A DNA stretch of 64,000 nt from Candidatus Sericytochromatia bacterium. Its GTDB lineage: Bacteria; Cyanobacteriota; Sericytochromatia; UBA7694. A model generated the notes under the pieces. It saw only the letters and a list, made by a program, of their open reading frames with translations, ran no database searches and had not been told where the DNA came from. Both the position numbers and the translations under genes were made by a program. The stretch is from positions 10,426 to 74,425 of the forward strand of contig JBIKWL010000002.1 in NCBI GenBank assembly GCA_044356335.1, read 5' to 3'. Positions 56,281-64,000 of the stretch are shown here, piece after piece. Positions within the stretch are counted from its first letter, which is position 1, and each line of letters starts with the position of its first letter.

Positions 56281-57327
56281 CTATTCTTCCCAATCGGGGC
56301 TGGTCTGGCGATAGAGTTCGCGCAGCAATTCTTCTTTTTCTTCGATCATGGCTTTAAACACATCGCGGAATTTCGAGTAAAAATCGTAGACATTGTGGCG
56401 AAATTTGTCTTCGCGCTGCTGAAAATCCGCGACCAATTGCTCGTATAAACTGCGGGCATGTTCAACTTCGCTGGCTCGGGCTTTGCGCTCGCGCAACAAA
56501 CTCTGGAGCAGGGCATTTTTTTCCTGACGCTCTTGAAACAGGGTGTTTTCTTTGTCTTGCAACACCTGGCTGTATTTGTCCATTTGCTCCCGCAACAGGC
56601 CATTGGCGTGTTCAATATTCTCAAGCAGCATTTCATAACTTTTGCGTTGCTTGTCCTGTGAGCGCAAAGAGGTGCGCAGTTGCTGCATTTCCTCTTGCAA
56701 GCTGCGCAGCTTTTCGTCTTTACTCTGCACCTCTTCACTCAATTGCTCAATGGTAGACTTCACATTTTTGATCTTGTAAAAAATACTGGCAGGCATGCCA
56801 AAAGCCATCTGGCGGCAATAGGCATCTTCACTGTCCAGGGCGGCTTCTAAAATGCCAATCGCAGGGGAATCAGTCAGGTCAATCGACTCATAATTGGAGA
56901 GCAAGATCAACAGCCGGGAGCTTTTAACCCGCACCCGCTCAGAGGAGTCAAAGAGCATGCGCTTGAGCGCAATTTCAATGCCCTGATCGAGATAGGCAAT
57001 ATTACAGTCCAGCACATCCAGAGCCAAGAGGCGCAATTGGGGGTCTGCCTGAATCAGCGAATCCAAGGAAAAGCGAATCGCCTGCTCAGGATCTTTTTCG
57101 GAAAAACGGTGAATCACGCGGATGCGTGCCAAGCTCTGAGGGTCCATCAGCTCCTGATAGGCCAAGGGATTCTTAAAAACCGCATCCAAAGAATAACGGG
57201 CATGATCGGGATGCTCATCGCCAATCGCATCGAGCAGAGAGAGAATGCTCTTTTTATCGCCGGTCCGGGCTAAAAAGTCCCAGCCACGCAAGCGCACCAA
57301 TGAAGCATCGGCTTTTTCGGGATTCAA
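56281..57327 (-). CDS. HEAT-repeat plus coiled-coil protein
   Basis: DPQLRLLAL, DSSERVR, DSEDAYCR repeats, then a long heptad-rich C-terminus. Confidence 0.75.
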   Translation of the reverse strand: MNPEKADASLVRLRGWDFLARTGDKKSILSLLDAIGDEHPDHARYSLDAVFKNPLAYQELMDPQSLARIRVIHRFSEKDPEQAIRFSLDSLIQADPQLRLLALDVLDCNIAYLDQGIEIALKRMLFDSSERVRVKSSRLLILLSNYESIDLTDSPAIGILEAALDSEDAYCRQMAFGMPASIFYKIKNVKSTIEQLSEEVQSKDEKLRSLQEEMQQLRTSLRSQDKQRKSYEMLLENIEHANGLLREQMDKYSQVLQDKENTLFQERQEKNALLQSLLRERKARASEVEHARSLYEQLVADFQQREDKFRHNVYDFYSKFRDVFKAMIEEKEELLRELYRQTSPDWEE

Positions 57328-59192
57328 CGGGTGAGTTCCTCGATCAGCGGATCGACCAGACTTTCATAACCGGCATTGCGAATCTTGAGCAAGCGCTCAA
57401 AGGCATGATCAACCACATCTTGTTCGGTATCGCGAATAAAGTCCACCAAGAGCGGGACCACATGGCCATAGAGCAAATAGGTCTGGCCCAAATAACAGAG
57501 AATGTCGATCAGGTATTTGCGCAGTATGCGGTTGCTCTCTTGGTGTTTTTCCAATAAACCCAGCCAGACCAGGGCATCATCCGGGTTTTTCACCAGGTCG
57601 CAGACCTCGCGAATCAAAAGTGCGCGCACACTGACATCTTCATGGTAGAGCACCGTGGCAAAGAGATCTTTACAAAGGGCTGCATTGGGGGCTTCCGGCA
57701 GTCGCAAAACATCGGCCAATTCACGCACACTGGCCAATTGTTGGCTGCGCGAGCCATGTTGCATCACATCTTGAAAATGTTTTTCCGGCAACGCGGGCAA
57801 GTTTTTTTCTGCAGGGCCAGCATTCAGAACCGACGGAGCAGCATTGCGAAGGTTGACCGATTTATTTAAAGCTTTGCGCATAAACGACAGCAATCCCTCC
57901 TTGGGAGCAGAACGGGCAAGCGGTGCTTGCCAATGGCGCGGGGGAGCGGGAAACCAGGGTACTTTATTCAGGCGTTTCTGCCATTGAGCCTCGGGGGGAA
58001 TCAGCTGACAAATCCGCCAATTGCCGGTATCCGTAACAAAAATCCGGCCCAAATGATCCATGGCAATGCCCTGCGGTTTGCAAAACTGATCTTTTTCGTT
58101 CCAGGGCTGCTCTACAGAGCGATACCCGGCAACCGTTTCGACCCAACCATCGGGAGCCACTTTACGCACACAATGATGGAAGCTGTCCACGACCAAGACA
58201 TGGCCCTGTTCATCCACAGCCAAACCCGCCATTTTTTCGGGTGAGATACGCCAATTGTCTTCACCTTTAAAACGCAGTGGCGTCAGCGTCAAATCTCCCT
58301 CTGGACTGATTTTCAGGAGCCGCTGACGATCGACAAGATAAATGGCTCCCTGGCGATCCAGGGCCAAATCCAAACGTTCATCGGCCCGAAAAGCCTGATT
58401 GCTCAAAGAAAAGGGCAAAAGCCGATCGGCGCGCTCACAAAACCAGGGGTTAAAAGGTTTGTTTTGGTCTCCATTTTTATAGGCTTTCCAGCTAAAAACA
58501 CCCGATTGTTCTACCAGCAATTCGCTTTGGCCCGAGGGCAAAAGCCGGCACAGAGCCAGGTAAAATTGTTTCTCAAAGCGCAGCTCGGTCGTGAAATAGA
58601 CCATGCCTTGCGGCCCACAGGCCAACCCACCCAAAGGCTGTCCACAGATCGGCAGGGTATGGGTTTCTCCCTGGGGCGAAATTTTGCGCAAGGCCTGATT
58701 GAGACTGTCAACCACGTAGAGAAAACCCGATCCATCGAGCGCAAGCCCCGTGGGCTGGTTAAAACGAGCTTGAGCACCCACCCCATCTTGAAAACCGCGC
58801 TCACCATTGCCTACAAAGGTACTGACTTTACCCTGGCGCGACACTTTGCGAATACAGTGGTTGAGGGTGTCTGCCACATACAAAATACCCTGTGTATCCA
58901 CCACCAAGCCAGTGGGTTTATTAAACAGGGCCTGCGGACCTCGGCCATTGCGAAAACCACTGCGCCAGACGGGCACGGGCAATGGCGTCCCACTCACACC
59001 GCGTTGCGCCGTAACCTGATCAAAGCGACCGGCAACAGTCAAAACCTCGTAATGGGGACGAACAATGGGGAGTACAGCCTCTTGCACAGACATAGGAATA
59101 GGCGCATAAGGGCTTTCTTGCACTGGTAAAGTGGCACGGAAGCCCGATTGAACCCCTAATTTTGCATAGATCGGAAGATGTTTAACCCGCAT
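57324..59192 (-). CDS. NHL-repeat beta-propeller protein with C-terminal HEAT-like domain
   Basis: FNKPTGLVVD..LYVADTLNHCIRK, FNQPTGLALD, PQGIAMD..VTDTGN; helical C-terminus; no signal peptide. Confidence 0.85.
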   Translation of the reverse strand: MRVKHLPIYAKLGVQSGFRATLPVQESPYAPIPMSVQEAVLPIVRPHYEVLTVAGRFDQVTAQRGVSGTPLPVPVWRSGFRNGRGPQALFNKPTGLVVDTQGILYVADTLNHCIRKVSRQGKVSTFVGNGERGFQDGVGAQARFNQPTGLALDGSGFLYVVDSLNQALRKISPQGETHTLPICGQPLGGLACGPQGMVYFTTELRFEKQFYLALCRLLPSGQSELLVEQSGVFSWKAYKNGDQNKPFNPWFCERADRLLPFSLSNQAFRADERLDLALDRQGAIYLVDRQRLLKISPEGDLTLTPLRFKGEDNWRISPEKMAGLAVDEQGHVLVVDSFHHCVRKVAPDGWVETVAGYRSVEQPWNEKDQFCKPQGIAMDHLGRIFVTDTGNWRICQLIPPEAQWQKRLNKVPWFPAPPRHWQAPLARSAPKEGLLSFMRKALNKSVNLRNAAPSVLNAGPAEKNLPALPEKHFQDVMQHGSRSQQLASVRELADVLRLPEAPNAALCKDLFATVLYHEDVSVRALLIREVCDLVKNPDDALVWLGLLEKHQESNRILRKYLIDILCYLGQTYLLYGHVVPLLVDFIRDTEQDVVDHAFERLLKIRNAGYESLVDPLIEELTR

Positions 59193-59287: not shown

Positions 59288-61138
59288 TTATTTTGTGAGG
59301 GGCAAAACGCTCAGAACCTCAAAAACAGGATCCAAGCGCCCAAAAGGAGCACTGATTTGGACTCCCTGCACGTGTGGGCGCAAGATCTGCACCATTTCTT
59401 GAGCGATTAAAATACCCTCTTCTTTGGCCCTGCCCGCGGCATCTGCCTCACACATGCGCTGCATAATGACATCGGGGATGACCACACCGGGTACTTCGTT
59501 GTTCATAAATTCCGCATTGCGGTAACTGGCCAAGGGCCAGATGCCTGCCAAAATCGGGATTTTATGCGATTCAATCTGTTCGAGAAAATGCAGAAGCGCC
59601 TCCACGTCAAAGACCGGCTGGGTAATCGCGTATTCAGCTCCAGCCTCGACTTTATAGTAAAAACGGCGAATTTCCCGCTCCAGGTCCACGGCACAGGGGT
59701 TGGCTCCCACCCCAATAAAATAGCCGGTGGGTTTGCCAATCGGGTTATTGCCCAAATCGTAACCATGATTGAGCCCATTCACCATATTGGTCAGGCCAAT
59801 CGCATCCACGTCAAAGACCGCCGTGGCATCGGGATAATCTCCCAGTTTGGGCGGGTCACCTGTAATCAACAAAATATTGTGAATGCCTGCGGTGTAAAGC
59901 CCGAGCAAATCAGACTGCATGCCGAGCAAATTGCGATCGCGACAACAATAATGGGGAATGGGTTCTATGCCCACCTGTTGGTGCATCAAAACCGAGAGAA
60001 TCTGGTTACTCATCCGCGCCGAGGCACGTGGCCCATCGGGCAAATTGATTGCGTCGACACCCCGCGCGTGCAATTCGCGGGCCTTGTCTAAAATGGCTGT
60101 GGGGTCACAGCCTTTGGGCGGGGTCAATTCGACACTCACGACAAAACGACCGGCTTGAATGCCCGCTGCCAAACGTGATTTTTCCGCCAAGGGCACGGGG
60201 CTGATATTCAGTTCGGGGGCCGGTTTATTTTTGGGTTTGGCATCAAGGTGGGCCCGCATCGGCTGCAGGGCTTTAACCGAACGGGCGATCTCGCGGATAT
60301 GCTCAGGGGTCGTACCACAACAGCCACCCAAAATTTGCACCCCGGCTTTGATCAATTTGCGGGCATAAGAGGCCATGTACTCAGGGGAGCAGAGGTAGAT
60401 CGTGCGATCCTGATAAATGCGGGGATGTCCGGCATTGGGCTGGGCTGCCAGGGGCTTATCTGTCCATTCCGACATCTGCATAATCGCATCCAACATGGGT
60501 TTGGGACCCACACTGCAATTCAAGCCGAGCATATCCACATCCAGCGCATCCAAGCGGGGGGTAAAGCGTTCTGGGGGGGTACCATAAATAGTATTGCCAT
60601 CGTCATCAACGGTGACCGAAGCCAAAATCGGCAAATCACTGTGTTTGCGAATCGCCGCAACAGCCTGAACCAGCTCATCGAGATTGGTAAAGGTCTCAAC
60701 CACAAAGAGGTCGACCCCGCCTTCGAGTAAAGGCAATACCTGGGTTTCAAAAGCTGCTTGGGCCTCGGCAAAAGACGTAGGGCCCAAAGGTTCAATTTTG
60801 ATTCCCAAGGGCCCAATAGAGCCCGCCACATAGGCTTGGTCGCCAGCTGCCCGGCGGGCAATCTGGGCCCCGGCCAAATTAATGGCATGGACCTGTTCTT
60901 CGAGGCCATGGGCCTTGAGTTTATAAGGATTGGCACCAAACGTATTGGTCTCAATCACATCGGCCCCAGCCTCCAGATACAGTTCATGCAATTCTTGCAC
61001 CAATTGGGGGCTTTGCAAATTGACCAGATCAAAATTGGTATTGAGAAAGACGCCTTTGCTGTAGAGCATCGTCCCCAAGCCCCCATCAAAGAGAATCAAG
61101 CGGCCACTGGCCAGCAGTTCACGAAAAGGGGCGGGCAT
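59288..61138 (-). CDS. yitJ: Bifunctional homocysteine S-methyltransferase / methylenetetrahydrofolate reductase
   Basis: DGGLGT, TNTFGAN, GLNCSVGP, GGCCGTTP; VELTPP, CRDRN, TGDPP, TQPVFD. Confidence 0.95.
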   Translation of the reverse strand: MPAPFRELLASGRLILFDGGLGTMLYSKGVFLNTNFDLVNLQSPQLVQELHELYLEAGADVIETNTFGANPYKLKAHGLEEQVHAINLAGAQIARRAAGDQAYVAGSIGPLGIKIEPLGPTSFAEAQAAFETQVLPLLEGGVDLFVVETFTNLDELVQAVAAIRKHSDLPILASVTVDDDGNTIYGTPPERFTPRLDALDVDMLGLNCSVGPKPMLDAIMQMSEWTDKPLAAQPNAGHPRIYQDRTIYLCSPEYMASYARKLIKAGVQILGGCCGTTPEHIREIARSVKALQPMRAHLDAKPKNKPAPELNISPVPLAEKSRLAAGIQAGRFVVSVELTPPKGCDPTAILDKARELHARGVDAINLPDGPRASARMSNQILSVLMHQQVGIEPIPHYCCRDRNLLGMQSDLLGLYTAGIHNILLITGDPPKLGDYPDATAVFDVDAIGLTNMVNGLNHGYDLGNNPIGKPTGYFIGVGANPCAVDLEREIRRFYYKVEAGAEYAITQPVFDVEALLHFLEQIESHKIPILAGIWPLASYRNAEFMNNEVPGVVIPDVIMQRMCEADAAGRAKEEGILIAQEMVQILRPHVQGVQISAPFGRLDPVFEVLSVLPLTK

Positions 61139-61163
61139 ATTCTTTCTCCTTCAGACCACAAAA

Positions 61164-62510
61164 TCAAGGTTGGGAGTATTGTAGCAGAGGCGGCAAGCTC
61201 AAACCCTCCCGATAGAAGAGATTATAGGTATCAAAGGGAATAATCCGCTGGGCATCGGGCGTCACAATATGTACACAGCTCTTTTTCACACTGCGAATGT
61301 CCAGATCCCAAGCGTCCATAAACCGCATGATAATGATTCGGAACAGGTTCTGGTAGCCCATGCCTGCGGGCACGGGAATCTGCGGCAAACAACAGAGCAA
61401 TTGGGCCGCCATTTCGGGGGAGTGAGCCGTTGAAAAAAGTTTTAAAAATTCTTCGTAGCGAATGGTATTGCCCTGGCACTCAGGATCAACCAAACGCGTC
61501 ATCGGAATCACACGATCGGGCAGTTTGAGTGCATACCCCATGGCAATACAATCGGGATGGCAGGGCACCGGCAACAGGTCTTCGGCACTAAACAGGTCGT
61601 GCTGGGCCAGAATTTGGGCCCGGACCTCACTCAGGGTGAGCCGATCGCGGGCGGGATCATAATTTTCCAGGCGTCCAGCTTCTTGAACCGGTTGAAAAGT
61701 CACGCCGCGCACACAGGACTGCTGCAGAGCGAAATCAATGATTTTACCAATTTCGCCATCATTTAGGCCTTTTTTAAGCGTGACCACCAGCGTGGTCGAA
61801 ATGCCCAATTCATTTAAGGTTTCGAGGGCTTTCATTCTGATCGGGCGCAGGTCTTCGCCACGCAGGGCCTCTAAGGGAGCCGCCTCAAGCGAATCAAACT
61901 GCAGATAGAGTTCAAAACCGGGCATATACTCAGCCAAACGCTCGGCAAAAGCCCGATCGCGGGCAATGCGAATGCCATTGGTATTGACCATCAAATGGCG
62001 AATGGGGCGGGCCCGGGCCTGATCGAGAATCGCAAAAAAATCGGGGTGCAAAGTGGGTTCTCCGCCACTGATCTGCACCACATCAGGCTCTTTTTCGTTG
62101 GCCACCACCCGATCCAACATGGCAATCACTTCATCCAAGGAGCGGTGTTTACGCCCAGGGGCCGAAGCCGCATAACAGATCGGGCAGGTCAAATTACAGG
62201 CATCACTGATTTCGATCAGGGTCAAACAAGAGTGCTGCTCGTGATCTGGACACAAACCACAGTCAAAGGGACAGCCCCGGCTCATCGGGGTATTAAAGGC
62301 ATAGGGCATCTGACCCGGTTTGAGCAAAGAGCGGGTTTTGAGGTAATAATCCACATCCGTGGAGATCAAAACTTTTTGCAGGCCGTGTTGGGGGCAAAAC
62401 TTTTGCAGATAGACATTGTTCTGTTGAAACAGCACTTTGGCTTCAACTTTTTGCAAACAGGTGCTGCACACCCCATTGGTCAATTCATAAAAAACATAAG
62501 GCCGATCCAT
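61164..62510 (-). CDS. Radical SAM enzyme of the MJ0619/Tes (GDGT-MAS) family
   Basis: N-terminal CSTC..CPQHG; CPFDCGLCPDH; CNLTCPICY; SGGEPT; YLQFD; CHPDC; SCVH..RIIPF.TYN. Confidence 0.9.
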   Translation of the reverse strand: MDRPYVFYELTNGVCSTCLQKVEAKVLFQQNNVYLQKFCPQHGLQKVLISTDVDYYLKTRSLLKPGQMPYAFNTPMSRGCPFDCGLCPDHEQHSCLTLIEISDACNLTCPICYAASAPGRKHRSLDEVIAMLDRVVANEKEPDVVQISGGEPTLHPDFFAILDQARARPIRHLMVNTNGIRIARDRAFAERLAEYMPGFELYLQFDSLEAAPLEALRGEDLRPIRMKALETLNELGISTTLVVTLKKGLNDGEIGKIIDFALQQSCVRGVTFQPVQEAGRLENYDPARDRLTLSEVRAQILAQHDLFSAEDLLPVPCHPDCIAMGYALKLPDRVIPMTRLVDPECQGNTIRYEEFLKLFSTAHSPEMAAQLLCCLPQIPVPAGMGYQNLFRIIIMRFMDAWDLDIRSVKKSCVHIVTPDAQRIIPFDTYNLFYREGLSLPPLLQYSQP

Positions 62511-62514
62511 TTAA

Positions 62515-63246
62515 TTACCTTTCCAGGCGCTCCAGGCGCCACATAGAGATCAAAGAATACACAGCACCCAGCAAAGAGGCCCAGGCAATCGCACTCAGAC
62601 CACCATAGATCATCATCACCGGCTTGAGCCACTCAGAGGCAAAGCGAAAGAGCAAATAGCCCGCCATAAACAGGCGAAAACGCGAACCAGGGGATTGCAC
62701 ACGAAACAGACCAAAATAAAGCGCCAAGCCCCATATCAAGACAAACAGAGACTCATAAACTTGGGTCGGGTGGCGGGGAATACCATCGCCAAAATCCACA
62801 GCCCAGGGCAAAACACTCGGGTTGCCATGGGTGCCATCAGGGAGCCCGGTCAAAAAACAGCCCACACGGCCCAGGCTCAAACCGAGTGCCATGGGCAAAA
62901 GGTAGACATCCCCCGTGCGTTGGCGAATCTGGAGACCGATTTTGACTATTTCAATACCCAGCCAGCCCCCCAAAAGTCCCCCGACAATGGTCTTGCCTGG
63001 TGGCAAAATCGCGCCGGTCAGTGGGTCAAAGGGTGTTTGTAGCCAACCCAAGCCTTTGGCGCCCAGCACAGCCCCCAAAATACAGCCGGCCAATAAGGCC
63101 AAACGCTGAAAAGGTGAAAAGGAAGCAGGCTGACGTTTTTGCAGCCAGCGATAGAGCTGAAATCCGCCTGAATAGGCCAAAATTTCAAATACCAGATGGG
63201 GGTGCAGGCGGACTGGCCCCAAAGACAGCCAGACCGGAAATTCCAT
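62515..63246 (-). CDS. Prolipoprotein diacylglyceryl transferase (Lgt)-family protein, divergent paralog
   Basis: GAVLGAK, GKTIVGGLLGG, GRVGCF, RHPTQVYE, YLLFRF..E; about 7 TMs. Confidence 0.88.
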   Translation of the reverse strand: MEFPVWLSLGPVRLHPHLVFEILAYSGGFQLYRWLQKRQPASFSPFQRLALLAGCILGAVLGAKGLGWLQTPFDPLTGAILPPGKTIVGGLLGGWLGIEIVKIGLQIRQRTGDVYLLPMALGLSLGRVGCFLTGLPDGTHGNPSVLPWAVDFGDGIPRHPTQVYESLFVLIWGLALYFGLFRVQSPGSRFRLFMAGYLLFRFASEWLKPVMMIYGGLSAIAWASLLGAVYSLISMWRLERLER

Positions 63247-63249
63247 GAG

Positions 63250-63435
63250 CTAAGGTGTGGTTTTGGGAGGGCAGGAAACGGGTTTTCCATCCGCATCGCG
63301 ACAGGAGGGTTGTGTCAGTGGTGGTTTTACAGGCGCAATCATTGGGCCACAAGCCTCAGAAGCAAACCAGGCGACAAGCAACAAGAGCCCAAAAGAAACA
63401 AAAAAACGTGAAGATGACATCCATTTCAAACGCAT
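63250..63435 (-). CDS. Small exported Cys/Pro-rich peptide, putative lipopeptide precursor
   Basis: AAGGAGGT RBS 5 nt before ATG; basic N-region, hydrophobic h-region, SEA-C, and two more Cys; stop is 3 nt before the lgt-like ATG. Confidence 0.8.
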   Translation of the reverse strand: MRLKWMSSSRFFVSFGLLLLVAWFASEACGPMIAPVKPPLTQPSCRDADGKPVSCPPKTTP

Positions 63436-63456
63436 ATTTGACCTCCTTTTTCCTTC

Positions 63457-63502
63457 ATTATACCTTTACTCAAAAACCAGATCGGACAATCTGGTTTTTG
63501 AG
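63457..63502 (-). promoter_or_regulatory. TATAAT -10 box next to a perfect 14-bp inverted repeat (terminator and/or operator)
   Basis: CTCAAAAACCAGAT-CGGACA-ATCTGGTTTTTGAG at 63469-63502; minus-strand TATAAT at 63457-63462. Confidence 0.6.
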
Positions 63503-63518
63503 AATGTCCCGCTTCTGT

Positions 63519-64000
63519 TCAACGTCGAGCAGGTTGGGTATAGACTGGGCGAGGCCCCTCTTCAAAGGCGTAGAGTTTGCCATCAGAAGACCCCACAAAC
63601 AAATAAGGCCCGACAATCACAGGACTGGCCAAAATTTCGCCCTTGGTCAGGGTAAAACCACGGGAGTTGCCATTGAGTCTGTCCAAGGCATAGATCAGTT
63701 TGTTTTCACAACCCACAAAGACGTGTTTTTCCGTGGCCACAGGGGCTGTCAGGGGCATGACTGCCCGAAATTTCCATTGCAGCTCCAAGGCACGGGTATC
63801 AAAGGCATAGAGGTTTTTTTCGCCCGTGATCAACAATTGGTTTTCAGCCAGGGCCATGTCTTTGGTAATGCTGTCTCCCTGGATCTGAAAACGCCAGTCG
63901 ATTTTACCCGTTTCTGGTATCAGACTGTAGACATAACCTCCCTGGGTACCAATAAACACACGGCCCTCAGCCCAAATTGGGGCAGTCGTGGGCTTGCTAT
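63519..64000 (-). CDS. PQQ-binding-like (BamB-type) beta-propeller protein, C-terminal part
   Basis: Repeats VYSL..TGKIDWRF, LYAFD..QWKF, SPVI..LFVGSSDGKLYAF; 5' end lies beyond the window. Confidence 0.85.
   Translation of the reverse strand, partial: SKPTTAPIWAEGRVFIGTQGGYVYSLIPETGKIDWRFQIQGDSITKDMALAENQLLITGEKNLYAFDTRALELQWKFRAVMPLTAPVATEKHVFVGCENKLIYALDRLNGNSRGFTLTKGEILASPVIVGPYLFVGSSDGKLYAFEEGPRPVYTQPARR

Follow-up and report, generated by a model that had tools for sequence, protein, structure and literature searches.

The archaeal tetraether synthase (Tes, or GDGT-MAS; MJ0619) couples the terminal carbons of lipid tails. Bacterial homologs of Tes have been known since 2022 and have been proposed as sources of the brGDGT lipids used as climate proxies; according to the available excerpts of the reports concerned, a 2025 paper still called their activity unconfirmed (PMC8941075, PMC11868695). 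In the accessible part of a further survey (PMC13159169), only three of the 14 Acidobacteria that produce iso-diabolic acid had Tes homologs, and no other producer that was screened had one, a sparseness that speaks against a role in bulk lipid synthesis. The second enzyme relevant here, the phosphatidylglycerol:prolipoprotein diacylglyceryl transferase Lgt, which moves diacylglyceryl from phosphatidylglycerol onto a lipobox Cys, is inactivated in Escherichia coli by mutation of H103, Y26 or E151, as stated in the excerpt available of PMC4728403. The bacterial lipobox follows the pattern [LVI]-[ASTVI]-[GAS]-C after a signal-type helix (PMC12462473, consulted in part).

Here, we describe a locus in the window (the whole 64,000-nucleotide stretch of DNA that was analysed) in which genes related to both enzymes are joined by a gene for a small cysteine-bearing peptide. 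An earlier note had proposed that a dedicated Lgt lipidates the peptide and that a Tes-like radical SAM enzyme cross-links the lipid chains. We found no published description of a link between an Lgt-type and a Tes-type protein of this pair. We present evidence that the two enzymes are functionally tied in many bacterial phyla, and we weigh what they may do together.

Results

Organization of the locus

The peptide ORF (63250-63435; 61 aa), the gene for the Lgt paralog, here called LgtP (62515-63246; 243 aa), and the radical SAM gene (61164-62510; 448 aa) all lie on the minus strand. The gaps between them are 3 nt (63247-63249) and 4 nt (62511-62514), which suggests translation coupling across both. 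Read directly from the sequence, a Shine-Dalgarno element, AAGGAGGT (63441-63448, minus strand), ends 5 nt before the peptide ATG. The close packing and strong ribosome binding site claimed in the earlier note are borne out, as are the motifs that it quoted: GKTIVGG and GRVGCF in LgtP, and CxxC..CxxH, CxxxCxxCxxH and the C-terminal CHPDC, SCVH and IIPF in the radical SAM enzyme.

The radical SAM enzyme

The third gene has no in-frame TGA, and its product matches the Pfam families Radical_SAM (87.1 bits) and Zn_ribbon_HMPTM (PF23545; 55.7 bits). The latter corresponds to a rubredoxin-type motif, C15-x2-C18-x20-C39-x2-H42 (62385-62468, minus strand), whose spacing is identical to that of GDGT-MAS, C9X2C12X20C33X2H36, in the part of PMC9433317 available. 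An auxiliary cluster motif, C80x3C84x2C87 with its histidine (H90), and the radical SAM motif C105x3C109x2C112 (62175-62273, minus strand) are invariant or nearly so in alignments A1 and A4. M395 (61326-61328, minus strand), invariant in A1, aligns with Met439, the labile ligand of the GDGT-MAS C-terminal cluster, when residue numbers are taken to differ from the chain index by 20, an offset derived from C9. The enzyme matches 7tol with an E value of 1.6e-63, and its structure model (pLDDT 87.1) superimposes on 7tom with a TM score of 0.83, the next fold scoring 0.39.

Family models and phylogeny place the enzyme apart from named relatives. Its best-scoring NCBIfam model is that of the radical SAM (seleno)protein TrsS (NF045646), yet the score of 316.5 bits lies below the cut-off of 490, and the score against Tes (NF045702) is 268 bits with a cut-off of 450. 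In a quick, midpoint-rooted FastTree phylogeny of 130 rows, the window enzyme falls in a 40-row clade (support 96), and ten archaeal Tes proteins, all of which pass the Tes cut-off, fall in the other half of the tree within a 64-row group (support 98). A true TrsS (P0227; 545 bits) groups next to the archaeal Tes proteins and away from the window's clade. We therefore rejected assignment of the enzyme as a Tes orthologue, on cut-off and clade, and as TrsS, on the same two grounds. Identity as a SPASM/twitch peptide maturase was also rejected; the highest scores among these models are about 33-47 bits, where the cut-offs are 265-650, and SkfB and SuiB match the core only (TM 0.36-0.40). The enzyme thus has the full four-domain GDGT-MAS/Tes fold, with a rubredoxin site, two auxiliary clusters, a radical SAM cluster and the labile Met among its metal-site motifs, and belongs to a distinct bacterial clade, so that its earlier description as Tes-like holds for fold and fails for orthology.

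LgtP, an Lgt paralog

LgtP scores above the cut-off of the Pfam LGT family (PF01790; 75.2 versus 24.9 bits) and below those of all three NCBIfam equivalogs (TIGR00544, 22.4 versus 118.9; NF000778, 36.7 versus 334; NF000775, 22.8 versus 428). Its structure model (pLDDT 89.2) has seven helices, and E. coli Lgt, 5azb, is the one PDB entry that it matches at an E value under 0.001 (E 1.8e-7, TM 0.64; next E 0.079). A subfamily profile separates LgtP proteins, at 301.7 bits or more, from canonical Lgt, at 83.1 bits or less. The same genome has a canonical lgt (260.5 bits) on a different contig, in agreement with the earlier claim of paralogy, and LgtP is an extra copy alongside canonical lgt in every bacterial genome checked. 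Genome annotation gives the LgtP subfamily the same name as the housekeeping enzyme.

In E. coli numbering, LgtP keeps R143, G142/G145, E202, Y235 and R239. R143, Y235 and R239 correspond to R127, Y197 and R201 of LgtP, the last two being invariant, and the position of E243 is E205 in LgtP and D or E in the family. R127 opens the sequence R127-V-G-C130 (62857-62868, minus strand), in which an invariant cysteine, C130, occupies the position of N146; the GRxGC motif is kept in all 28 long or fused LgtP forms. H103 is replaced by valine and Y26 by histidine, and N149 and E151 are lost. In alignment, 66 LgtP sequences carry TIVGG where eight canonical Lgt sequences carry sfHGG. R143 and the glycines of the Lgt signature G142-RLGNFINGELW-G154 are retained, and the H103 that defines HGGL is absent. 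LgtP defines a second Lgt subfamily, which is widespread and recognizable by GRxGC and by its lack of the HGGL histidine. Since residues essential in E. coli Lgt are missing, transferase activity cannot be assumed, and the claim that a dedicated Lgt lipidates the peptide is not supported in its original form, given the loss of H103, Y26 and E151 (PMC4728403, available excerpt).

Conservation of the LgtP-radical SAM cassette

A survey of 80 radical SAM loci from many phyla, among them aerobic Bacillales, Bacteroidota and cyanobacteria, placed LgtP within 6 kb of the radical SAM gene in 67; in 49 it is the gene immediately upstream, in the same orientation. Six loci with full flanks had no nearby LgtP; in five of those genomes LgtP was encoded elsewhere. 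Of 41 related genomes, 13 encode LgtP (at least 301.7 bits), and all 13 are radical-SAM-positive; none of the 26 that lack the radical SAM gene encodes it. Natural fusions of LGT with Zn_ribbon_HMPTM (and with Radical_SAM), from several sources, account for 21 of 27 long LgtP relatives. Adjacency, co-occurrence and fusion together support a functional tie between LgtP and the radical SAM enzyme that extends well outside this genome.

The tie has exceptions close to the window. A genome of the same genus (G001, 95% complete) has the peptide and radical SAM genes 65 nt apart, and no LgtP was found anywhere in it, which does not support the earlier note's proposal in its original form. In genus g6, LgtP is encoded away from the cassette. 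Both observations count against a three-part system that includes LgtP.

The 61-residue peptide and other small cysteine-bearing proteins

The peptide reads MRLKWMSSSRFFVSFGLLLLVAWFASEA-C29, followed by a 33-aa tail with a C45-x9-C55 loop. Its N-terminus is basic; next come a hydrophobic stretch of 18 residues that ends in WFASEA-C29 and a Pro-rich, hypervariable linker before the loop; the signal-type N-terminus, SEA-C site, tail and loop are all as first described. The peptide matches no Pfam or NCBIfam family. In all 10 of the family genomes that carry the radical SAM gene, a profile built for the peptide found one copy adjoining that gene; it found none in the three family genomes without the gene, G007 giving just a weak match (E 0.0091) inside a 368-aa frame. 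The peptide stays directly beside the radical SAM gene across three genera with differing flanking genes. Two alleles of the genus (G000 and G004) differ over the loop and tail by six synonymous changes in 12.8 sites and two non-synonymous changes in 38.2 sites. Because of these ten copies and the synonymous excess, the ORF is coding rather than a chance frame, and the loop (CRDADGKPVSC; 63271-63303, minus strand), with its few non-synonymous changes, is under purifying selection.

Cys29 (codon 63349-63351, minus strand), invariant in alignment A2, lies at the outer end of the hydrophobic helix, 17-19 residues from the last basic residue in the peptide family, and is the candidate modified cysteine. 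The peptide agrees with the lipobox pattern in its helix and in the alanine at -1, and departs from it at -3 (Ser) and -2 (Glu). A crude list of lipoprotein candidates from this genome has 209 entries, of which 129 carry Leu at -3, 11 carry Ser there and none has Glu at -2. The site is thus atypical for the housekeeping lipoprotein pathway of this genome; relatives of the peptide carry STAC or TQAC in its place. By the -3,-1 rule, S-E-A/C could also be a signal peptidase I site, which would make the product a plain secreted peptide and counts against the three-part system.

The earlier note had expected a conserved small Cys peptide upstream of lgt-radical SAM pairs. This exact peptide is limited to one Candidatus Blackallbacteria family, and no such upstream peptide was found outside it. 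The idea of a small cysteine-bearing partner survives in altered form, in that at least 55 of the 80 cassettes encode small membrane proteins, unrelated to the window peptide, in which a charged residue is followed by 15-22 uncharged residues and then a near-invariant cysteine (exceptions: one c3 member at 7, one at 14). Those encoded within cassettes form four sequence clusters, with the cysteine conserved in 27/28, 13/13, 10/10 and 9/9 members. A fixed rule alone detects such Cys-helix ORFs in 45 of 80 cassettes, at a density of 0.55 per kb versus 0.017 per kb-strand in flanks, the rule and its flank control both being rough; when cluster membership is added, the count is 55. The helix-to-Cys layout of the window peptide matches that of these proteins. 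The small proteins of other phyla have no C-x9-C loop. The common small-protein type is absent from this genome (positive control, E 3e-17), and the peptide's genus is without the usual small cassette protein. Most of the small proteins have their genes after that of the radical SAM enzyme, not after LgtP; they belong to several unrelated families, and 21 of 80 loci, inspection by eye included, yielded no Cys-helix ORF. All three points count against a three-part system.

Discussion

The homologies, folds, linkage, fusions, co-occurrence and conserved Cys-helix layout described above are observed features of the cassette, and we use them to propose, tentatively and at somewhat less than an even chance, a three-part membrane system in which a glycerolipid is tethered to a cysteine by LgtP and then has its tails coupled by a radical SAM enzyme that docks on LgtP. 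LgtP would retain a pocket for an anionic glycerolipid (R127, Y197, R201), with its acceptor side rebuilt. The radical SAM enzyme would sit on the cytoplasmic side of LgtP, to which it is joined as one polypeptide in some bacteria, and it would bring every metal site known from the archaeal tetraether synthase. The third part would be a small membrane protein with a basic cytoplasmic residue, 15-22 uncharged residues and a cysteine at the outer face, a helix geometry like that of an Lgt substrate; at this locus the 61-aa peptide would play that part. Transfer of the lipid, its timing with respect to the radical step and the resulting product are inferred as follows: LgtP would tether a diacylglyceryl-type lipid to the small-protein cysteine, perhaps by way of its own invariant cysteine, which lies equally deep in the membrane. 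Acyl-tail ends would then be joined by the radical SAM enzyme, either closing a ring inside the anchor or connecting it to an inner-leaflet lipid. The product would be a protein-bound macrocyclic or membrane-spanning lipid. The linked enzyme pair, the paralogy and the Tes fold of the earlier proposal are upheld; lipidation and tail cross-linking keep the standing of a proposal. Two considerations weigh against this three-part system beyond those already given. LgtP may bind lipid without transferring it, and, since the cysteine faces the outer side and a radical SAM enzyme has to act from the cytoplasm, only the tail ends would be reachable.

The main competitor, rather unlikely in our judgement, is remodelling of bulk lipid, with LgtP inactive as a transferase and acting as a membrane dock and lipid-presenting subunit while the radical SAM enzyme couples free phospholipid tails into macrocyclic or membrane-spanning lipids; the small Cys proteins would then be accessory subunits, and the window peptide would not be a substrate. 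Loss of the Lgt-essential H103, Y26 and E151 with retention of the lipid-binding arginine pair would suit such a dock, and the fusions point to one enzyme unit. The radical SAM enzyme is 58-67% identical across phyla though the small proteins differ, and G001 keeps it without LgtP. Bacterial Tes homologs have moreover been proposed as makers of membrane-spanning lipids (PMC8941075, available excerpt). Yet docking leaves unexplained both the near-invariant cysteine at a fixed depth in unrelated small proteins and the invariant cysteine of LgtP. The cassette also occurs in aerobic Bacillales, Bacteroidota and cyanobacteria, and we know of no reports of membrane-spanning lipids in these groups. 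Tes homologs, in the part of PMC13159169 available, do not track the producers of such lipids.

Improbable, in our view, is a cooperation of LgtP and the radical SAM enzyme alone, with the 61-aa ORF an ordinary small lipoprotein of the housekeeping Lgt/Lsp pathway, or a disulfide peptide secreted through signal peptidase I, that merely shares the operon in this family. The restriction of the peptide to one family, its persistence in G001 without LgtP, its hypervariable linker and the agreement of S-E-A/C with the -3,-1 rule would all be expected of a bystander. Its position directly beside the radical SAM gene in three genera with differing flanks, and its absence from the three family genomes without that gene, would not; nor would a helix-to-Cys layout shared with the cassette proteins of other phyla, in a genus lacking the usual small protein, or gaps of 3 and 4 nt that suggest coupled translation. 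Least probable by far is a RiPP-like pathway in which the radical SAM enzyme modifies the peptide, through thioether or C-C cross-links at cysteine, and LgtP adds a lipid to yield a lipopeptide natural product. A small Cys-rich peptide encoded beside a radical SAM gene and a conserved C-x9-C loop invite this explanation, but the enzyme has the architecture of a lipid enzyme, GDGT-MAS, over its whole length, scores far below the SPASM maturase cut-offs (about 33-47 versus 265-650 bits) and is highly conserved in phyla that lack this peptide, where the small proteins are also without the loop.

Within the three-part system, the stronger claim of a new kind of protein lipidation, in which a dedicated Lgt-type enzyme, a dedicated mini-protein and bound or fused Tes-type tail welding yield a protein-linked macrocyclic or membrane-spanning anchor, seems to us unlikely. 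If true, it would supply the first function for the large bacterial branch of the Tes superfamily and would explain why bacterial Tes-type genes miss known producers of membrane-spanning lipids. Should the product be bulk lipid rather than protein-bound, the cassette would still bear on which organisms make membrane-spanning lipids in soils and lakes. The largest bacterial Tes-like branch sampled is almost always paired with, and sometimes fused to, a specialised Lgt-fold partner, and it is usually accompanied by a small Cys-bearing membrane protein. The three-gene cassette makes the function of bacterial Tes homologs testable, and it occurs in culturable hosts, among them Paenibacillus, Chitinophaga, Flavobacterium and Fischerella.

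Besides TrsS, treated above, three described systems offer the closest comparisons. LgtP shares with E. coli Lgt (PDB 5azb) the PF01790 match, the seven-helix fold and R143, G142/G145, E202, Y235 and R239, but it is about 45 residues shorter, has valine for the HGGL histidine, histidine for Y26 and an invariant cysteine for N146, and is without N149 and E151. Mss, the bacterial membrane-spanning lipid synthase of Thermotoga and Clostridia, is likewise a radical SAM enzyme, one that joins the tails of fatty acids; its kinship with Tes is described as no more than remote, and the portions available of these reports mention no Lgt partner (PMC13159169, PMC13459092, PMC13274423). Zn_ribbon_HMPTM had no match in the Thermotoga maritima control genome. 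Tes/GDGT-MAS (MJ0619, 7tol, 7tom), for which the partly available literature describes no membrane partner of the Lgt fold such as the window enzyme has, is the third. The two enzymes are only 28-29% identical, and the cysteine set of the C-terminal cluster differs in the window enzyme (C317, C373/C374, C412), yet they match in fold over their whole length (TM 0.83) and have in common the rubredoxin motif, the N-terminal CX3CX2C cluster with its histidine, the radical SAM cluster, the labile methionine and the C-terminal IIPF..YN tail.

Organization of the cassette

The cassette lies on the minus strand and comprises three genes, encoding a 61-aa Cys peptide (63250-63435), the 243-aa Lgt paralog LgtP (62515-63246) and a 448-aa radical SAM enzyme (61164-62510), which are separated by gaps of 3 nt and 4 nt. 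A ribosome-binding site, AAGGAGGT, ends 5 nt 5' of the first start codon, that of the peptide gene. The three-gene locus observed in an earlier note is therefore confirmed, and all of the motifs quoted there were found in the window proteins. Pfam assigns the second protein to LGT (75.2 bits) and the third to Radical_SAM with an HMPTM/MJ0619-type zinc ribbon. A scan of 60900-63900 for promoters and terminators returned sites no more numerous than in shuffled sequence. Two RNA libraries from a single study (runs X23 and X24) contain a strain approximately 94-95% identical, and their contigs span both the peptide/LgtP and LgtP/radical SAM junctions; because contigs cannot demonstrate a transcript and the libraries may contain DNA, these are a weak hint of co-transcription.

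Directly 3' of the cassette, after a 25-nt gap, is a gene for a 616-aa bifunctional homocysteine S-methyltransferase/methylenetetrahydrofolate reductase (59288-61138, minus strand; NF006396, 736 bits), so that a methionine-cycle gene adjoins a SAM-consuming enzyme, an arrangement confined to the genus of the window. The cassette is also flanked by a 622-aa NHL-repeat protein (57324-59192, minus strand) and, on the other side, by a protein of about 398 aa (63519-64000, minus strand) that has a canonical LLAC lipobox, looks like a beta-propeller and continues beyond the window end.

LgtP is a paralog with an altered active site

A canonical lgt (260.5 bits) is present on a separate contig of the window genome (320 contigs, 94.9% complete), which rules out the window copy as the genome's sole lgt and bears out its designation as a paralog. 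All NCBIfam lgt equivalog models score far below cut-off against LgtP, and an LgtP profile separates LgtP genes (at least 301.7 bits) from canonical lgt (at most 83.1 bits). A PDB sequence search with LgtP gave no match, and Lgt was recovered by fold search alone: the LgtP model has seven helices (pLDDT 89.2), and E. coli Lgt is its sole PDB match below E 0.001.

Residues were compared between 66 LgtP and 8 canonical Lgt sequences, and a second alignment of 20 sequences gave the same invariants. LgtP keeps E. coli Lgt residues R143 (R127 in the window), E202, Y235 and R239. H103 of the HGGL motif is Val, Y26 is His, N149 and E151 are lost, and N146 is replaced by an invariant Cys (C130). Changes at H103, Y26, E151, R143 or R239 each abolish activity of the E. 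coli enzyme (PMC4728403). The GRxGC signature is present in all 28 long or fused LgtP forms. Long GRxGC-type relatives carrying other fused domains also occur (P0287, P0272 and P0295); these domains are PF04072 (leucine carboxyl methyltransferase family), PF25323, or PF12543 with PF13899.

The radical SAM enzyme belongs to the Tes superfamily

The third protein aligns with the GDGT-MAS structure 7tol (E 1.6e-63) over residues 11-317 and 388-436, and its model, built from 34 sequences (pLDDT 87.1), superposes full-length on 7tom with a TM score of 0.83, the second-best fold being SkfB at 0.39. Of the GDGT-MAS features described in PMC9433317, the window enzyme shares the rubredoxin motif with identical spacing, the CX3CX2C+His cluster, the radical SAM motif and a Met aligned with the labile Met439. 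The GDGT-MAS-like character proposed in the earlier note thus holds for both the fold and the metal-site motifs.

The two top-ranked NCBIfam models are TrsS, at 316.5 bits against a cut-off of 490, and Tes, at 268 bits against 450. In a FastTree phylogeny of 130 rows, a quick method with a midpoint root that combined the window's relatives, 50%-identity representatives and 10 archaeal Tes above the NCBIfam cut-off, the window enzyme falls in a 40-row clade (support 96) nested in a 49-row clade (support 100). Archaeal Tes occupy the other half of the tree, where a true TrsS (P0227, 545 bits) adjoins them. Identity with Tes was rejected on score and separate clade, as was identity with TrsS, given its score and the placement of P0227 in another clade; Mss was also rejected. 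Motifs, fold, tree placement and NCBIfam scores thus put the window enzyme in the Tes superfamily, with the architecture of that group, but as neither Tes nor TrsS.

At least 8000 90%-identity clusters match the enzyme at E 1e-10, under generic or automatic names only, and 7623 50%-identity representatives match at E 0.001. Among the latter, P0262, P0220 and P0229 represent other branches of the superfamily with fusion partners of their own (a class I methyltransferase; a MobA-like nucleotidyltransferase with an HD domain; DUF5714), and these fusions suggest that the superfamily may hold several further undescribed functions.

LgtP and the radical SAM enzyme are linked across phyla

A scan of one genome per species returned at least 594 radical SAM relatives, and the best 80 loci, whose radical SAM proteins are 58-67% identical, were analyzed. 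These span Planctomycetota, Bacillota, Acidobacteriota, Bacteroidota, Cyanobacteria, Myxococcota, Gammaproteobacteria and further groups. In 67 of the 80, LgtP is found within 6 kb of the radical SAM gene: directly upstream on the same strand in 49, upstream with a gap in 15, downstream in 2 and on the opposite strand in 1. LgtP is missing from 6 loci with full flanks, although 5 of these 6 genomes carry it elsewhere, and from 7 with an upstream flank shorter than 900 nt. Across 41 related genomes, which are non-independent samples, the radical SAM gene occurs in 15, of which 13 have LgtP, and LgtP is found in none of the 26 others; the two exceptions are G001 (95% complete), from the window's genus, and G012 (66% complete). 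Natural fusions of LgtP to the radical SAM enzyme also exist (P0122 and P0236), and 21 of 27 longer LgtP relatives combine LGT with the zinc ribbon, with or without Radical_SAM. The fusion proteins come from several sources, some clusters being represented on up to 8 contigs. Taken together, gene linkage, fusions and co-occurrence show that the two proteins function as a single unit at the membrane.

Apart from LgtP and small membrane proteins, no other conserved neighbor was found in the 80 loci, and an ABC ATPase present in 11 looks like chance. Radical SAM genes from a second family of the window's class group with Bacteroidota in the FastTree phylogeny (support 100), and the cassette is moving between lineages by horizontal transfer. 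One MAG titled Halobacteriales archaeon (L067) carries a bacterial-type cassette of LgtP, radical SAM enzyme and small Cys protein, LgtP being its only PF01790 match, and in a MAG titled Actinomycetota (L060) the radical SAM gene nests among Nostocales sequences; both findings could reflect either gene transfer or mis-binning.

The 61-aa peptide is family-specific

The earlier note had expected a conserved small Cys peptide upstream of such pairs. Outside the window's family, no peptide-type ORF precedes the LgtP/radical SAM pair. Within it, a six-peptide profile detects a single copy beside the radical SAM gene in all 10 radical-SAM-positive genomes (genera g1, g2 and g6). The profile detects nothing credible in the family's 3 radical-SAM-negative genomes, or in other families whose cassettes have a different origin. 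The gene order is peptide, LgtP, radical SAM in the window and genus g2; peptide, radical SAM, without LgtP, in G001; and housekeeping lgt, a 117-aa ORF, peptide, radical SAM and a small membrane protein in g6. In genus g6 (loci L024 and L025; genomes G010 and G012), this housekeeping lgt (about 250 bits) is the second gene upstream of the peptide/radical SAM pair, and the LgtP gene is on a different contig.

The conserved features of the peptide are a basic N-terminus, a helix terminating in W-F-A-[ST]-x-A-C, a linker rich in Pro and a C-x9-10-C loop. Two alleles from the genus differ by 6 synonymous and 2 non-synonymous changes in the loop and tail, and the linker has been swapped out between them; on a 26.7-kb metagenome contig, indels in the peptide gene sum to +3 nt. 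From this substitution pattern and the frame-keeping indels we conclude that the ORF is translated and under constraint. The linker between Cys29 and Cys45 (63304-63348, minus strand) is wholly different from that in G002/G004 and sequencing run X8, strains of one genus whose radical SAM genes are 98-100% identical, with indels that leave the peptide in frame. Such a pattern resembles allelic exchange or diversifying selection on an exposed segment. The SEAC sequence ending at Cys29, the candidate modified residue, is unusual among lipoprotein candidates of the window genome, and we take it to be equally compatible with a signal peptidase I site. A protein atlas search with the peptide gave no match at 0.9. 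A predicted complex of LgtP, the radical SAM enzyme and the peptide, the last entered as partner, scored 0.02 (mark 0.32) in a run without controls, which counts neither for nor against binding.

Small Cys-helix proteins accompany the pair in other phyla

Small membrane ORFs encoded inside the cassettes on the same strand fall into four sequence clusters and smaller sets. Cluster c1 (24 loci, several phyla) has three helices and the motif ..LLN[AG][AG]C[FW].., with Cys in 27 of 28 members; c2 (11 loci, Bacteroidota) has ..G[FL][AS]xCS (13/13); c3 (8 loci) has ..GLGICG (10/10); and c4 (5 loci, Acidobacteria), located between LgtP and the radical SAM gene, has ..SLGLCG (9/9). Smaller sets from the window's own class carry GFPSC or GSGICGG. 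In each cluster Cys is the most, or jointly the most, conserved column, and 15-22 uncharged residues separate it from the last charged residue, with the exception of two c3 members (7 and 14); the spacing in the window's peptide family is 17-19. By the positive-inside rule, this Cys would lie at the outer face of the membrane, the side of the Lgt active site (PMC4728403).

A fixed rule gave 63 hits to Cys-helix ORFs in 115 kb of cassette sequence, distributed over 45 of the 80 cassettes, and 22 hits in 1325 kb-strands of flanking sequence, the rule missing known members and the flank control being rough. The rule and cluster membership together account for 55 of the 80 cassettes; 4 more were recognized by eye, and 21 had none. 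Nine small cassette proteins searched against Pfam and NCBIfam gave nothing above cut-off except the Paenibacillus form, a B-box zinc finger (25.3 versus 24.1 bits). Where LgtP is unlinked (G010, G013 and Fischerella), no Cys-helix protein adjoins its gene. A c1-type protein is absent from the window genome (positive control E 3e-17), so that the 61-aa peptide is the sole helix-plus-Cys protein of the cassette.

In Paenibacillus (L077 4901-5164; L100 4829-5086), an 85-87-aa protein encoded upstream of LgtP consists of a B-box-like zinc finger and, after it, a single helix terminating in ..LITICGALIF, and represents another form of Cys-helix partner. In a Tepidisphaeraceae MAG (L050 4087-5906), LgtP and the radical SAM gene are separated by a tandem array of three paralogous lipoproteins with canonical LIGC, LTGC and LAGC lipoboxes; each lipobox precedes the motif [IL]Y[LI]P[IL].EH.

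Discussion

The Arg pair kept in LgtP suggests that it still binds an anionic glycerolipid, and the radical SAM enzyme, with its complete set of GDGT-MAS cofactors, probably still acts on the ends of lipid tails. The recurrent Cys-helix partner and the invariant Cys found in LgtP at the N146 position point to thiol chemistry at the outer face. We therefore tentatively favor, while holding it with some doubt, a pathway in which a lipid would be tethered to the Cys of the small partner protein and the lipid tails would next be coupled. The main rival, which we regard as rather unlikely, is that LgtP merely docks the enzyme and presents lipid, the product being a free (bulk) lipid. Tethering is opposed by the loss of H103, Y26 and E151 in LgtP, by G001 with its lack of LgtP, by the location of most small-protein genes 3' of the radical SAM gene rather than of LgtP, and by the membrane itself, across which the radical SAM enzyme and the Cys face each other. 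A free-lipid product sits poorly with published reports that the distribution of Tes homologs does not follow that of producers of membrane-spanning lipids (PMC13159169) and that Halobacteria with homologs make no GDGT (PMC8941075).

The earlier note had proposed that a dedicated Lgt lipidates the peptide and that the radical SAM enzyme then cross-links the lipid chains. This interpretation gains partial support: its Lgt paralog and GDGT-MAS architecture stand, and the peptide upstream of such pairs proves restricted to the window's family, where it appears to be one lineage's version of the cassette's third part.

Among the papers listed by our literature searches, none connected an Lgt-type protein with a radical SAM or Tes enzyme. 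Bacterial Tes homologs are already on record, with 456 in PMC8941075 and 281 MAGs in PMC11868695; their activity was still described as unconfirmed in a 2025 paper. Mss is the sole bacterial entry in a review of work up to 2025 (PMC13459092), and bacterial coupling is credited to Mss in a 2026 paper (PMC13274423). Beside these systems, the two- to three-gene cassette is widespread and uncharacterized, and unites known folds in a new combination.
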